A stretch of 38,799 nt of DNA from Chloroflexi bacterium HGW-Chloroflexi-1 (lineage in GTDB: Bacteria; Chloroflexota; Anaerolineae; CG2-30-64-16), in contig PHCA01000014.1 in assembly GCA_002842085.1 (NCBI GenBank), positions 1 to 38,799 of the forward strand. Direction: 5' to 3'. Below the pieces are notes generated by a model, which saw only the letters and a list, made by a program, of their open reading frames with translations, was not told the origin of the DNA and searched no databases. The position numbers and the translations under genes were made by a program. Each line of letters starts with the position of its first letter. Within the stretch, counting starts at the first letter, position 1. This document shows positions 1 to 17,033 of the stretch, piece by piece.

Positions 1-308
1 CGCGCTCCAAGGCATCGACCAGCCGGCGCATGGCCGGGAGCACCTCGCCGTTCAGCTCGTTGAAAAAGGCGGTTGCCCCGCGGCCTTGCCAGCCGCCCCC
101 TGCTAAGGACTGAGGATTAAATAACTTGGGCAAGTCCCCTCTTCATTTGCCGGAGCAGATGAGTAAGTTATTTAGTCCTTAGCCCTAATGGTCGCATGGC
201 TCGCTGCACGCGGTCGGTCAGCTCCTGGTTGGCTCGGGCCTGGCTGCCGAAGCGTCTAGCCAGGTTGGCAAGCTCGTCGTACCAGGCCTGGATGAAGTCG
301 CTGGACAT
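1..308 (-). pseudogene. WXG100-domain protein interrupted by a MITE; runs off the window edge
   Basis: ATG at 308 reads MSSDFIQAWYDELANLARRFGSQ...AMRPL, then hits a stop at 168-170 inside the insert. Removing 107-185 plus one TAA restores the frame: RPL-AGGGWQGRGATAFFNELNGEVLPAMRRLVDALER, matching the other two WXG100 N-termini. Confidence 0.85.
107..185. mobile_element. 79-bp MITE with 21-bp imperfect terminal inverted repeats and TAA target duplication
   Basis: Left end GGACTGAGGATTAAATAACTT versus reverse complement of right end GGGCTAAGGACTAAATAACTT (18/21). TAA at 104-106 and 186-188. Confidence 0.9.
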
Positions 309-366
309 GGTTCGTGCCTCATCGATGATGAACTGGTCCAGGGCTGACCGTCAGAGATCACCGGCC

Positions 367-1176
367 TTACAGGCTCTTGGCCAGCAGGTCGCGAATCTCC
401 TCCGCCGTCGCGGTCTTCACCAGGAGCGGCGCCTTGGCCTCCTGGCCGGCCGCGGGCGCCACCCACCAGGCATGTTTACCGTTTTGCACCAGGGTGAACT
501 CACGCGAGCGCACTGCCTGGTTGCCTTGTTGTTTCAGCGTTTGCAGGATCGAGACGCGCGGGGAGGAGACCAGCGTGGACACCAGGGCGCCGGCTGCGGC
601 GTTCGGGACGCCGGCTTGCGTCAGCAAAGCCGTCGCGCGCGCCGCGTCGCCGGCACTGGCGAGTTGCCGGGCATCGGCGAAGTCCTGGCGCGGCACGGTG
701 AACTCCAGCGGTTGCGCGACGGGCACATCCCCGCACTCGCAGAAGGCCAGCACCTGGTTGACGAGATCCTCCTTGGATTGCAGCAAGGTGAACCGGTGCA
801 ACACGGCAGACGGTCGGGTGTGGACGACCACGTCGGCGCCACGGATGTGCCCGAAGAGGCGGTGCGGTGCTTGACCACCTGACGGCCAATGATAGGCCAG
901 CACAGCATCTTGCGAGTAGGCGCAGACGCCCACGGCGGTCAGCAAGGCGCGGTGCACCAGCAACTCACCGTCGGCCCGAATTTGCGCCAACTCGCGGGCC
1001 AGCAAGGCGCGCCTGGCAACCACCACGGCAAAAGCCTGTTGATCAGGCGCCAACTCTCCCGTCGGCTCGCGATCCAGGCCCGGGATCGTCGGGGCGCGCA
1101 GCACGTCCAGGATCGCCAGCAGCTCCTCGCGCGACAACAGCACTGTCAGCGGTTGTGATCGAGACTCCTCGTTCAT
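367..1176 (-). CDS. EspG-like T7SS chaperone candidate (269 aa)
   Basis: N-terminal LSREELLAIL...ARRALLARELA...LLTAVGVCA resembles the EspG family pattern. Start overlaps the stop of the upstream WXG100 gene. Paralogue of 14610-15398. Confidence 0.55.
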   Translation of the reverse strand: MNEESRSQPLTVLLSREELLAILDVLRAPTIPGLDREPTGELAPDQQAFAVVVARRALLARELAQIRADGELLVHRALLTAVGVCAYSQDAVLAYHWPSGGQAPHRLFGHIRGADVVVHTRPSAVLHRFTLLQSKEDLVNQVLAFCECGDVPVAQPLEFTVPRQDFADARQLASAGDAARATALLTQAGVPNAAAGALVSTLVSSPRVSILQTLKQQGNQAVRSREFTLVQNGKHAWWVAPAAGQEAKAPLLVKTATAEEIRDLLAKSL

Positions 1177-2351
1177 GGTGCTCCTTTCGACTTGTCCTTG
1201 ATAGCTTTGCCCAACAGTGCCAGGAACGGGCTGAGCGCGGCCAGGCCCATCGGGATGCCCACATTGGCCTGCGCAGCTAGCTGCCCCGCGGCCGCCCCAC
1301 TGCCGGCTCCGCCCTGGGCCGCAACGCTCGCTGGCGTGGCTTTCACTGCGGCGCCGAGGCTGCCCGCGCCGCCGATGCTTTGGTAGCGTAGCGGGCCAGG
1401 CGGCAGCGCGGCTGCCGCCTGGCTGCCGGCGCCGGCGCCGTACCCTTGCCCAAACGGGCTGCCGCCACCGGATGGCTGGCTCATGCCGGCGCCAGTGCTG
1501 GGACCGCCACCTCCCGGCGAGCCACCACCGCTGCCCATGTCACCACCACCCCCGCTGGGAGCGCCACCTCCACTGGACCCGCCGCCGAGACCGCTGTCCA
1601 TCCCGGCGCCAGCGCCGCCACCCATGCCGTCGCCGAGTCCGCCGCCACCAGCGCTGCCACCCATGCCAGCGCCGTAAGCCTGGTCAACCCCGGAAAGCCA
1701 GTCGTCGGGAACGCTGAAGTCGCCAGCGCCGCCCCCCAGCCCACCGCCGCCGGCGCCGCCGCCGGCGAAATCGCCGTCAGAGCCATACCCGTAGTCATTC
1801 TGTATCTGGTCCAACCGCGCATCATCGATGTCGCCGGGCATGAAACCACCGTCGTCCCAGGCGCCTCCAGCCCCCCCACCGAGATCACCGATAGGATGTG
1901 TTTCACCGCTGTTGGCGAAGAAATCGCCGATGGTCTCACCCGTTCCTCCTACACCAAGGCCGCCGCCGATGTCGCCACCGACGTCGCCTCCCGCACCGCC
2001 GATGCTGCCCCCTGCATCGCCGACCGCGCTCCCGATCGCAGCCCCGCCACCGGTATCCTGGCGGAAGGGTGAGGCGGCCTGCTCCTCGGCGTTGCGCAGG
2101 ACTTCCTCGATCTGTTTTGTCACGCGGTCGGCCTCGGCCAGCGCAGCCGCCAGGCGCTGTACCGCCGGCAGGACCTTGTCCGACAGCTCTGCGAAGAATG
2201 CCTCCGACCCCTTGCCGACCCAGGCCGGCCTCAGCAGAGACATCTGGCGATGCAGATCGCTGTGCATCTGGCGCATCTTGTTCGCCTGCTGCGCGAAGCG
2301 TTTCGCCAGGGCCGCCAAAGACTCATAATTCGCCTGAATGATATCCGCCAT
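1173..2351 (-). CDS. WXG100-domain protein with long Gly-rich low-complexity tail (392 aa)
   Basis: About 95-aa helical N-terminus with WVG (AWVGKGSEAFFAEL), then a Gly/Asp/Ala-rich region and a hydrophobic plus basic C-terminus. AAGGAGG RBS upstream. Confidence 0.85.
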   Translation of the reverse strand: MADIIQANYESLAALAKRFAQQANKMRQMHSDLHRQMSLLRPAWVGKGSEAFFAELSDKVLPAVQRLAAALAEADRVTKQIEEVLRNAEEQAASPFRQDTGGGAAIGSAVGDAGGSIGGAGGDVGGDIGGGLGVGGTGETIGDFFANSGETHPIGDLGGGAGGAWDDGGFMPGDIDDARLDQIQNDYGYGSDGDFAGGGAGGGGLGGGAGDFSVPDDWLSGVDQAYGAGMGGSAGGGGLGDGMGGGAGAGMDSGLGGGSSGGGAPSGGGGDMGSGGGSPGGGGPSTGAGMSQPSGGGSPFGQGYGAGAGSQAAAALPPGPLRYQSIGGAGSLGAAVKATPASVAAQGGAGSGAAAGQLAAQANVGIPMGLAALSPFLALLGKAIKDKSKGAP

Positions 2352-15398: not shown

Positions 15399-15402
15399 GT
15401 CG

Positions 15403-16041
15403 CTATGCCTCCACGCTAAAGTTCAACTCAAGGCGCCAATCGTTTTGTGCAGCCAGGGTGTTCAGCACTGTGACACACCGCCGAAGCGCGGCCGCATCCG
15501 GGTGGTACCAGACCAGCACTTCACCATCGCTTTCACAGTAGATATACTCCTCAGGACTCGCCTTCGCCATACTGGCGTAAGCTTGTTCCAGCGCTGGTGC
15601 AAGAAGCGCCTCTGTCCATGCACCGGCCAAAGCCTCGGCAATTCTCTGCCCACGGTGTTCCAGTGCGGCCACAAACGCCGCGGCACGTTCTCCGGGCATT
15701 TCAGGGAGGGCCACGATAAAGAGCAAGCCCAGTCTGAAATCCGTGCTTCGCACAGCCGCCAGGATTTGAGCAGCCGTCACCCGTTCTGCAAAAGCCAACA
15801 TGTATTTGGTCGTGCCGTGATGAATGGTAGATCTGCGCCCGGACAACTCGGTAAAGTCCACATCCCAGTCGACGGGATCATATCCGGCAAAGCAGACATC
15901 TCGGCCTGCGAAAATCGTCGTCGCGATCAGGTCGAGAACGTTTGACCAATTCGGCTCGTAGCCGTCGGCATCGAGCGTCACCAACACCGAGTGGGTGGGA
16001 CCACGGCGTAGGCGCAGACAGGATTGACTTGGTGTAGTCAT
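15403..16041 (-). CDS. Hypothetical protein (212 aa), candidate immunity protein
   Basis: True start is most likely the ATG at 16041, overlapping the TGA of the upstream WXG100 effector (TGATG). No signal peptide. Confidence 0.65.
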   Translation of the reverse strand: MTTPSQSCLRLRRGPTHSVLVTLDADGYEPNWSNVLDLIATTIFAGRDVCFAGYDPVDWDVDFTELSGRRSTIHHGTTKYMLAFAERVTAAQILAAVRSTDFRLGLLFIVALPEMPGERAAAFVAALEHRGQRIAEALAGAWTEALLAPALEQAYASMAKASPEEYIYCESDGEVLVWYHPDAAALRRCVTVLNTLAAQNDWRLELNFSVEA

Positions 16042-17033
16042 CAGAACAATTCTCCGATCTGCTCGCCCAGCCACCCGCCGCCGAGCCCACCGCCGATGCC
16101 ACCTGCCAATCCGCCCAGGAACCCGCCCACGCCGGCGCCGACGACCGTGCCAGCGCCCGGAATGACGCTGCCGACAATCCCACCCAACCACGCGCCCCCG
16201 GCCGCGTCGGCCTGGGCGCCAGCAAACGCGCCCGCCCAACCGCCGGCTACTCCGCCGATCGCTTGCCTGGTCTCAGCCCCCACGGCGTTACCGTCCGCGT
16301 GAAATGCCGAGCCGAGGCGAAAGGCATCAGTCACCAGGGCCACGGGCAGGGCAATTTTGCGTGCAGCTTCCAGTGCGTGGGCGCCCTTGCCGGCGGCCTC
16401 CAGCAGGGCCGGTGATATTTTGATGTGTGGATCTTTGAAGCCTGTCAGGGCTTGTTCGAGATTGATGTGAGGAAAATTTGTGCCTTTATGGGGTAAGTCG
16501 AAACGCATGAGCGACAGGCCGCGTCCGGGCTTGCCGGCCAAAAGATCAATCAAGGCCGCCACCGTCGCCTGGCCGCGCGCCGTGTTGGGGGTAAGCGCAC
16601 GTAACACGAAACGCTGGGTGAGCAAGGTGTCGGCCGCCACCCCTTTGAGCATCCCGCCCAGCAAGGCCGCGGCTGTGCCTGCGCTGTCTGCCACATCGCC
16701 GCTCAGGCCCGCCGCCGGCACACCAGGCGCATCGGTTGCGCCCCGGAAGGGCGCGGCCGCATCCTGCTCGGCCCGTTGCAGGATCGCGATGATTTGCATC
16801 GTGGCTTTGCCGGCATCGTTCAGCGCGCGGTGCAAGCGCGCCGTGGCCGGCAGCACCCGGTCACTCATCTCCGCAAAAAACGCCTCGGAGCCGTGCCCGA
16901 TCCAGTTGCCCTGCAGCGCGCTCAGGCTCCGCTTCATCTGCTGTTGCATCCGGTTGATCGCGTTGGCCTGGCGCGCGAATTGCGTGGCCACTTGCTGCAA
17001 CTGCCGATAGTCCGCTCGGATTTCATCTGCCAT
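16041..17033 (-). CDS. WXG100-domain effector with His-cluster region and C-terminal glycine zipper
   Basis: MADEIRADY...NWIGHGSEAFFAEM at the N-terminus, central RFDLPHKGTNFPHIN...DPH, and long GxxxG runs at the C-terminus. Confidence 0.8.
   Translation of the reverse strand: MADEIRADYRQLQQVATQFARQANAINRMQQQMKRSLSALQGNWIGHGSEAFFAEMSDRVLPATARLHRALNDAGKATMQIIAILQRAEQDAAAPFRGATDAPGVPAAGLSGDVADSAGTAAALLGGMLKGVAADTLLTQRFVLRALTPNTARGQATVAALIDLLAGKPGRGLSLMRFDLPHKGTNFPHINLEQALTGFKDPHIKISPALLEAAGKGAHALEAARKIALPVALVTDAFRLGSAFHADGNAVGAETRQAIGGVAGGWAGAFAGAQADAAGGAWLGGIVGSVIPGAGTVVGAGVGGFLGGLAGGIGGGLGGGWLGEQIGELF

Follow-up and report, generated by a model that had tools for sequence, protein, structure and literature searches.

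The study of type VII secretion systems (T7SS) rests on the mycobacterial ESX and the Firmicute Ess/Yuk machines. A locus of the Chloroflexi bacterium HGW-Chloroflexi-1 appears to combine parts of both, and raises the question of what kind of system it encodes. The stretch analyzed here, hereafter the window, is the entire 38.8-kb contig (PHCA01000014.1, 38,799 nucleotides; C81) of a metagenome-assembled genome (MAG; G000) of 4.45 Mb in 419 contigs, with an estimated completeness of 97.9% and a contamination of 1.84%. An earlier note, made from the sequence alone, had described the left part of the window as a T7SS that mixes components of the actinobacterial type (T7SSa) and the Firmicute type (T7SSb). 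We find that positions 1-17039 are very probably the core operon of a T7SS in a Chloroflexota-specific arrangement. This arrangement is real and conserved in a third phylum, and is a distinct variant of a known system.

A conserved type VII secretion locus in Chloroflexota

The cluster consists of eleven genes, all on the minus strand, that run from position 17039 down to base 2; our gene calls agree with the order that had been listed for them. Most neighboring pairs overlap at their start and stop codons or lie 4-58 bases apart, so that the cluster looks like an operon. The succession of pseudokinase, EccC, ubiquitin-like (Ubl)-FHA and WXG genes is found again in five relatives belonging to four families (G014, G262, G135, G051, G148). 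Among 80 further loci with the pseudokinase gene, 75 hold at least part of EccC, 56 the Ubl-FHA gene and 58 matches to all four small Esx-type genes that we describe below. EccC, Ubl-FHA and all four Esx-type matches occur together in 41 of the 80, many of the remaining loci being cut by contig ends. In some loci the pseudokinase gene points the same way as EccC, and in others it is inverted in place. Because it recurs in the loci of five relatives and in most of these 80, the arrangement is not a product of chance, and the gene order first noticed in the window is indeed conserved.

The homologues bear the source names Anaerolineae, Ardenticatenaceae, Caldilineaceae, Promineifilaceae, Chloroflexales, and Herpetosiphon, in agreement with the guess of the earlier note that the DNA came from Chloroflexota. 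The pseudokinase loci thus span Anaerolineae and Chloroflexia, with cultured Herpetosiphon among them. Within the family the locus is patchy, since only one of 40 close relatives has a pseudokinase orthologue. Over a sample of 401 Chloroflexota genomes, 67 gave a match to the N-terminal part of EccC and 11 had the giant frame described in the next section. One locus (L094), a 5.7-kb contig with a Chloroflexota-type pseudokinase, Esx genes and the start of EccC, is listed as part of a Sphingomonadaceae MAG, probably through mis-binning.

The giant EccC, the pseudokinase and the Ubl-FHA protein

The sole EccC-type gene of the genome encodes 2964 residues without a stop, and the protein is 72% identical to that of G014 over its full length. 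Three NCBIfam models are matched above their cut-offs: TIGR03924 (EccCa, 1018 bits, cut-off 509), TIGR03925 (EccCb, 826 bits, cut-off 347) and TIGR03928 (EssC, 1501 bits, cut-off 778). The FtsK_SpoIIIE family (PF01580, 543 bits) matches in seven stretches. The protein had correctly been recognized as a giant EccC; what had been missed is that its size, twice the usual one, is due to seven P-loop domains in the order (D1-D2)x3-D3, with Walker A motifs at residues 562, 935, 1278, 1620, 1955, 2301, and 2602. Hydropathy of the sequence predicts two transmembrane helices, at residues ~34-56 and 62-84. Only about 34 residues precede the first of these, which leaves no N-terminal FHA domain. The best solved relative is the Thermomonospora EccC (4nh0, 256.7 bits), followed by YukB (190.5) and EccC5 (181.4), such bit scores being a crude proxy for phylogenetic placement.

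The three D1-D2 modules are each about 670 residues long. In a module-against-module BLAST, the second is 52% identical to the first and 53% to the third, and the third is 49% identical to the first. All share the same motifs, namely GxTGSGKS with a Walker B of the form hhhhDE in the D1-type domains and GxSGWGKT with hhhhDN in the D2-type domains. The Walker B pair is Asp-Asn in the three D2 copies and in D3, and Asp-Glu in the three D1 copies; the latter is kept in all 18 D1 copies of six EccC orthologues. With Walker A and the Walker B Asp-Glu both kept, the three D1 copies look catalytic, as judged from their motifs. In known T7SS, only D1 is thought to drive secretion.

The triplication is old. 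Each module of the window protein is closest to the module in the same position of five orthologues (54-78% identity, against 44-54% for other positions), and in a FastTree phylogeny of 44 modules the first, second and third modules of the main group each form one clade with a support of 100. Two distant giant EccCs (L141 and L144) behave differently: in this quick tree their three modules group with the single module of the ordinary-size EccC of L137, which may reflect gene conversion or a second, independent triplication. Near the pseudokinase loci we counted 58 complete EccC frames, of which 47 are giant (2800-3300 residues), five of ordinary size and six fragmented. Exactly seven Walker A motifs were found in 40 of the 47 giant frames and three in each of the five ordinary ones.

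The gene beside EccC encodes a protein with an N-terminal zinc ribbon of four cysteines, a Hanks-type kinase fold and a predicted transmembrane helix at residues ~333-357. Its best solved relative is PknB (E = 1.6e-18). In an alignment of 45 family members, the Asp position of the HRD motif is occupied by Gly or Ala in every one, and the catalytic-loop Asp, Lys and Asn (HRDLKxxN) are present in none. Lys69 of strand beta-3 is kept in 44 of the 45, the Asp of the DLG motif and Cys5, Cys8, Cys19 and Cys24 in all, and the APE motif is also retained. Since the catalytic Asp, Lys and Asn are gone throughout the family, the protein is a pseudokinase. The earlier description of a membrane pseudokinase therefore holds for its missing catalytic residues and its membrane helix, and fails for its assignment to EssB/YukC: the protein is PknB-like, lies outside the YukC family, lacks an extracellular domain, and is at most an analogue of EssB. 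Co-folding of the pseudokinase (residues 1-330, 45 alignment rows) with the Ubl-FHA protein (residues 1-216, 51 rows) gave 0.01 against a mark of 0.32, a result used neither for nor against binding.

The Ubl-FHA protein stays under the Pfam cut-offs for both of its halves (YukD, PF08817, 18.7 bits, cut-off 27; FHA, PF00498, 15.5 bits, cut-off 20.7). A model of residues 1-100 (predicted local distance difference test, pLDDT, 87.3) has a ubiquitin-like beta-grasp fold, and a Foldseek search with it gave 312 ubiquitin-fold matches at E<=1e-3, the best of them a bacterial Ubl protein (E = 1.2e-5). At the family level, with E<=0.01, PF00498 is matched by 50 of 51 members and PF08817 by seven (best 4.5e-5). 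Fold and family matches thus confirm a ubiquitin-like and an FHA domain in what had been called YukD-FHA, though the window protein itself is sub-threshold for both Pfam families. In the FHA domain, all 51 members retain Gly123-Arg124, Ser149-Arg150-Arg151, and Asn170, and 43 of them the His of the Ser-x-x-His motif, so from its residues this domain looks able to bind phosphothreonine. A weak NCBIfam match to TagH (TIGR03354, E = 1.7e-4) lies far under the cut-off.

Substrates, chaperones and components outside the window

Two long proteins of the locus carry a WXG100 head above the cut-offs of PF06013 (27.3 bits) and TIGR03930 (44.85 bits): substrate 1 scores 38.9 and 57.1 bits and substrate 2 scores 40.3 and 59.6 bits. 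Together with a third WXG100 gene that is split by a repeat, these account for the WXG genes that the earlier note had proposed. In G014, G262, G135, and G051 a WXG gene comes after Ubl-FHA, as it does in the window. No Pfam or NCBIfam family was matched by the tail of either substrate. For substrate 1, a paralogue on another contig (C400) matches Gly-zipper_Omp under the cut-off (E = 0.0036), and Atlas feature matches to Gly-zipper clusters score 0.92, which serves as a lead only; substrate 1 is thus a candidate membrane-active toxin. The 212-residue protein encoded directly after it matches no Pfam or NCBIfam family. Its homologue in L088 (30% identity) directly follows a homologue of the toxin tail, and there the pair and an EspG-like gene adjoin the pseudokinase gene. 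From its position, we consider this protein a candidate immunity or partner protein.

Each of the two long WXG100-headed proteins has an EspG-like protein encoded downstream, the 212-residue gene sitting in between in the case of substrate 1. For EspG-like protein 2, which has 137 homologues, an AlphaFold2 model based on a 57-row alignment reached a pLDDT of 92.6 and a predicted template-modeling score (pTM) of 0.88. Among the matches listed by Foldseek against the PDB, the top 16 are without exception mycobacterial EspG1, EspG3, or EspG5 chains, with E values between 1.4e-13 (EspG3) and 1.1e-10 and template-modeling scores of 0.65-0.75 at 13-17% identity. Its paralogue, EspG-like protein 1, aligns to the profile of the family (A1) with a hhalign probability of 98.1% (E = 7e-14, 249 columns) and scores 72.8 bits in a search with that profile. 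The name EspG-like was therefore well chosen: the fold search confirms the EspG fold for protein 2, and the profile alignment links protein 1 to it; substrate binding is seen only as adjacency to WXG genes. Sequence searches were silent on this point. Neither protein matches the EspG family PF14011 at E<=10, the closest approach being a homologue (P0034, E = 0.023). A search of five genomes with PF14011 found nothing, with a control that was silent everywhere too, and the best hit of the EspG-like profile among sequences of solved structures was an unrelated chain (E = 0.017), so that the fold search alone worked.

The EspG-like family is present in 28 of the 401 Chloroflexota genomes, 27 of which are among the 67 with an EccC match, and in 10 of the 11 with a giant EccC. 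Within the 80 pseudokinase loci the EspG-like matches were 1 and 0, the 10-kb flanks ending short of the place of the gene. In other Chloroflexota, EspG-like genes often stand at a distance of 1-3 kb from ordinary-size EccC genes (~1250-1550 residues), for example at G405:C2:54100-54876, G264:C27:142378-143166, and G294:C183:31813-32592, and at others. The chaperone is thus general to Chloroflexota T7SS and not restricted to the giant-EccC form.

The two predicted lipoproteins bear lipoboxes, as had been noticed, and match no Pfam or NCBIfam family. Homologues of the first (49% identity) were found only inside the T7SS loci L066 and L091, which are two of 85 loci, and it is absent from the G014 locus. 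The second has no homologue in the 85 loci or in the rest of the genome at E<=1e-4.

The window locus is not the whole system. Its left edge is the contig end, as the earlier note had suspected, and the first 96 bases of the window are shared only with C60, which carries a paralogous WXG gene and not the continuation of the cluster. In G014, the locus beyond the corresponding end holds a TM-FHA gene (TM, transmembrane) followed by unrelated genes. This TM-FHA gene adjoins the T7SS locus in all five relatives, and its counterpart in the present genome lies on contig C207. The protein is built of a signal or transmembrane segment, an outer domain that in the long forms is an extracellular VWA domain, a transmembrane helix and a C-terminal cytoplasmic FHA domain; this FHA domain likewise matches the family of Yop-YscD cytoplasmic domains. 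Likewise, four genes of about 100 codons, of the WXG100 and EspC types, precede the pseudokinase gene in the five relatives, and four such small Esx-type genes lie on C400 in our genome, one of them an EspC-family protein (PF10824, 29.8 bits, cut-off 23.5). C400 (L062:1-3759) is in effect a second T7SS cassette, with a WXG100 gene, three Esx/EspC-type genes, a glycine-zipper toxin paralogue that contains one in-frame TAG, a 187-residue partner and a cut EspG-like gene; at its edge lies a gene almost identical to the head of the substrate 1 gene. Genes for a Ser/Thr kinase and a PP2C phosphatase lie near the locus in G051 and G148, and a Ser/Thr kinase and an FHA gene near that of G014.

The absence of the canonical sets, which the earlier note had remarked upon within the window, extends to whole genomes. 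EccB (PF05108) and YukC/EssB (PF10140) were found in none of six genomes, namely ours and the five locus-bearing relatives, with positive controls in Corynebacterium and B. subtilis, respectively. Over five genomes, and again with positive controls, neither EccD (TIGR03920) nor EsaA (TIGR03929) was found, and no mycosin (TIGR03921) scored above the cut-off of 278.75 bits; EccE and EssA were not searched for. The best mycosin matches (260.5 bits in G014:C53, 223.1 bits in C82 of our genome) do not lie in a T7SS locus.

To the right of about 17.1 kb, the window carries an ABC-2/HlyD exporter, an Opp transporter and leu/ilv genes that are unrelated to T7SS. A gene with AAA-ATPase_like and PD-(D/E)XK (PDDEXK_9) domains (35184-36806) lies between leuB-like and leuA-like genes. 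In a stretch of low guanine-plus-cytosine (GC) content (~55%, 22-25 kb), a small DUF4160 gene (22833-23123) sits amid short open reading frames, possibly as part of a small mobile or toxin-antitoxin island. A dispersed repeat family with 15-bp tandem sub-units occurs at 3558-3654, 17085-17106, 38636-38750, and 38700-38799, as well as on over 100 contigs, often at their ends. Probably it is a main cause of the fragmented assembly, and the reading frame 17301-17900, which is composed of it, is probably spurious.

Table 1. Features of the T7SS locus and of the TM-FHA genes (positions in the window unless another locus is named; aa, amino acids; TM, transmembrane).
Feature	Position	Strand	Evidence or remark
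Substrate 1, 332 aa: WXG100 head (aa 6-91), glycine-zipper-like C-terminal tail	16041..17039	-	PF06013, TIGR03930
212-aa protein, no known family	15403..16041	-	Start overlaps substrate 1 stop by one base
EspG-like chaperone 1 (predicted), 262 aa	14610..15398	-	hhalign; paralogue of gene 367-1176
Tail-anchored zinc-ribbon pseudokinase, 365 aa	13368..14465	-	Pkinase 52.2 bits
EccC gene, 2964 aa	4455-13349	-	TIGR03924, TIGR03925, TIGR03928 above cut-offs; FtsK_SpoIIIE
EccC N-terminal part, aa 1-504	11838..13349	-	34 residues, two TM helices, stalk/D0
EccC module 1, aa 505-1195	9765..11837	-	D1 GSTGSGKS, Walker B IIIDEF; D2 GASGWGKT, AIDNF
EccC module 2, aa 1220-1880	7710..9692	-	D1-type (DE) and D2-type (DN)
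EccC module 3, aa 1897-2555	5685..7661	-	D1-type (DE) and D2-type (DN)
EccC D3-type domain and C-terminal tail of ~130 aa	4455..5684	-	Walker A GPPVSGKT, Walker B LIDNY
Ubl (YukD/EsaB-like) beta-grasp (aa ~8-86) and FHA (aa ~115-212)	3729..4436	-	Fold and family profile
Lipoprotein candidate 1, 152 aa	3073..3531	-	Lipobox LTAC; accessory
Lipoprotein candidate 2, 172 aa	2406..2924	-	Lipobox LGAC; accessory
Substrate 2, 392 aa: WXG100 head, long Gly-rich region, C-terminal hydrophobic helix (aa ~362)	1173..2351	-	PF06013, TIGR03930
EspG-like chaperone 2 (predicted), 269 aa	367..1176	-	Fold; start overlaps substrate 2 stop by 4 bases
Third WXG100 gene, two frames (168-308, 2-133)	2..308	-	Split by dispersed repeat, ends at contig edge
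MITE-like dispersed repeat (miniature inverted-repeat transposable element), inverted ends, ~82-87 bp	103..189	.	Inserted in WXG100 gene
TM-FHA gene	L061:3300-4610 (G000 C207); L059:11180-13429; L054:10852-13218

Relation to known systems and rival readings

How does this locus relate to the systems already described? According to the main text of the survey by Garrett, Higginson and Palmer (2024; PMC11217815), eight further arrangements, T7SSc-j, exist in Bacillota and Actinomycetota; they carry kinases, phosphatases, FHA and Ubl proteins, with EspG-like proteins in T7SSh and T7SSi, and EsaE of T7SSb is also predicted to have the EspG fold. The ATPases of T7SSc-j have four NTPase domains each, and T7SSh lies beside Tad genes. 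That main text contains no Chloroflexota and no enlarged EccC. Because the EspG fold, FHA domains and kinases occur in T7SSb and T7SSc-j alike, they can no longer serve to mark type a or b, and with parts shared across subtypes the word hybrid describes a composition and not a demonstrated origin. The a/b mosaic of the earlier note thus stands as far as the composition is indeed mixed, while its marker framing is dated and a hybrid origin does not follow. The consulted parts of four papers place WXG100/ESX genes in some Chloroflexi and state nothing more (PMC3482391, PMC3935865, PMC4010439, PMC10765036). Our literature search, whose scope for PMC11217815 was the main text, found no paper on a Chloroflexota T7SS locus, on an enlarged EccC or on EspG in Chloroflexi.

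With the T7SSa of Actinomycetota (ESX), the locus shares an EccC without FHA, chaperones of the predicted EspG fold and the EspC-family small protein on C400. It differs in that EccB, EccD and mycosin were not found above cut-offs, the Ubl domain is fused to FHA and not to EccD, no PE/PPE substrates were seen and its EspG-like proteins fall outside PF14011. With the T7SSb of Bacillota (Ess/Yuk), it shares a Ubl domain resembling EsaB/YukD, cytoplasmic-face modules of the FHA and pseudokinase kinds, and toxin-like substrates with helical heads and neighboring partner genes. In T7SSb, EssC's FHA domains bind the EssB pseudokinase, as stated in the part of PMC10765036 that we consulted. The FHA domains of our locus, in contrast, are off the ATPase and keep the phosphothreonine-binding residues that those of EssC lack. 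The PknB-like pseudokinase without an extracellular domain and the lack of EsaA (none in five genomes) are further differences from T7SSb.

Type VI secretion is controlled by a threonine-phosphorylation switch formed by PpkA, PppA, and Fha1. The FHA scaffold, the neighboring Ser/Thr kinase and PP2C genes and the weak TagH match of the Ubl-FHA protein are reminiscent of it, but type VI is another machine, the kinase-like protein of our locus is catalytically dead, with active kinases next to the locus in some cases only.

The closest arrangement in composition is T7SSh, compared here through its description in the text of PMC11217815. It also has WXG100 proteins, Ubl, an ATPase without N-terminal FHA, an EspG-like chaperone and a kinase-like protein (TshM) with a single C-terminal transmembrane helix and no extracellular domain. 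This five-part composition, with its tail-anchored kinase-like protein, would fit a locus that is simply a branch, in Chloroflexota, of the T7SSh arrangement known from Paenibacillus, with lineage-specific additions. We regard this as unlikely, though it is the strongest of the alternatives. Our locus has seven P-loop domains where four NTPase domains are stated for all c-j ATPases, it comes from Chloroflexota and not Bacillota, and no Tad pilus genes are present in the window whereas T7SSh always lies beside them. The fusion of Ubl to FHA, the zinc ribbon on the pseudokinase, the conserved TM-FHA protein (VWA in long forms) and the four conserved small Esx/EspC-type genes also set it apart. 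The likeness is judged by description.

A second alternative is that the system of this genome is a remnant in decay that has ceased to secrete. It would be suggested by the third WXG gene (2-308), into which a repeat of 82 bp has been inserted, by the TAG in the toxin paralogue on C400, by the placement of the small Esx and TM-FHA genes outside the window and by the repeats between genes at 3558-3654. Deleting 82 bases of the WXG gene in silico restores one frame with a gapless alignment to the C60 paralogue. Besides this copy of the repeat, at least 41 matches of 84-98% identity lie on the other contigs; the repeat breaks the unitigs of window 1-3000, one of which bridges 70-127 (run X1) and with it the junction. 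The core genes of the window are nonetheless full-length open frames with conserved motifs, EccC among them, and C60, C75, and C297 carry unbroken paralogues of the split WXG gene. Since contigs end in repeats, the scatter over C81, C400, C207, and C60 may be an effect of assembly. We therefore consider a dead remnant rather improbable. An artefact of assembly or binning that joined different organisms, for which one could cite the 419 contigs and 1.84% contamination of the MAG and the one pseudokinase locus titled Sphingomonadaceae (L094), deserves next to no credence, being contradicted by conserved synteny, with the same gene order in a single-contig 6.3-Mb chromosome and many long contigs, by an even GC content over the core and by a 2856-base unitig of constant depth that spans 160-3000.

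Several observations weigh against our preferred reading of the locus as the core of a Chloroflexota-specific T7SS. In five loci the same neighbors accompany an ordinary-size EccC, which shows that the arrangement can do without the seven-domain form, and G051 gave no match to the EspG-like profile. YukD membership of the Ubl domain is sub-threshold, and YukD is absent among the 50 fold matches listed. With no polytopic partner (EccD, EsaA) found, a model of the channel rests on EccC itself. The candidate toxin and immunity roles derive from position and from sub-threshold glycine-zipper signals. For window 4400-14399 no RNA run is listed, the two DNA runs (X1, X2) coming from one study. Finally, the scatter over four contigs, the split WXG gene and the TAG in the toxin paralogue may mean that parts of the system are decaying.

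The mechanism that we infer from these parts and their conservation would be as follows. Hexamers of EccC would provide both the membrane channel and the motor, and the pseudokinase, the Ubl-FHA protein and the TM-FHA protein would assemble at the cytoplasmic face as a scaffold or switch. Threonine phosphorylation would probably set this switch, since in some relatives the locus has genes for a Ser/Thr kinase and PP2C next to it and since the FHA domains stand on separate proteins with their phosphothreonine pockets kept. The EspG-like chaperones would hold the long WXG substrates and pass them, with small Esx partners, to EccC. At least one of these substrates, with its glycine-zipper tail and downstream partner gene, may be an antibacterial toxin with its immunity protein. 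The three D1-D2 modules would give two more catalytic rings, either as added power strokes or as docking sites for each class of substrate.

A bolder proposal goes further, and we would give it slightly less than an even chance. The locus would represent an eleventh, undescribed T7SS of Chloroflexota, in which triplication of D1-D2, maybe twice independently, produced three competent ATPase rings and hence a multi-stage or multi-substrate translocase, gated by phosphothreonine-reading Ubl-FHA and TM-FHA proteins and maybe used as a contact weapon in the predatory Herpetosiphon.

The ten arrangements of the 2024 survey are confined to two phyla, and the present locus adds a third. Recurring parts, namely Ubl, FHA, the kinase fold and the EspG fold, are here rewired without large accessory membrane proteins, which bears on what a minimal T7SS is. 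The seven-domain EccC with its three apparently active D1 copies is the most surprising part, and amounts to a natural experiment on the ATPase stack. As the locus is present in cultured Herpetosiphon, genetics, secretome analysis and cryo-electron microscopy are feasible, and if the bolder proposal is true, the use of the Herpetosiphon T7SS as a contact weapon would be directly testable.

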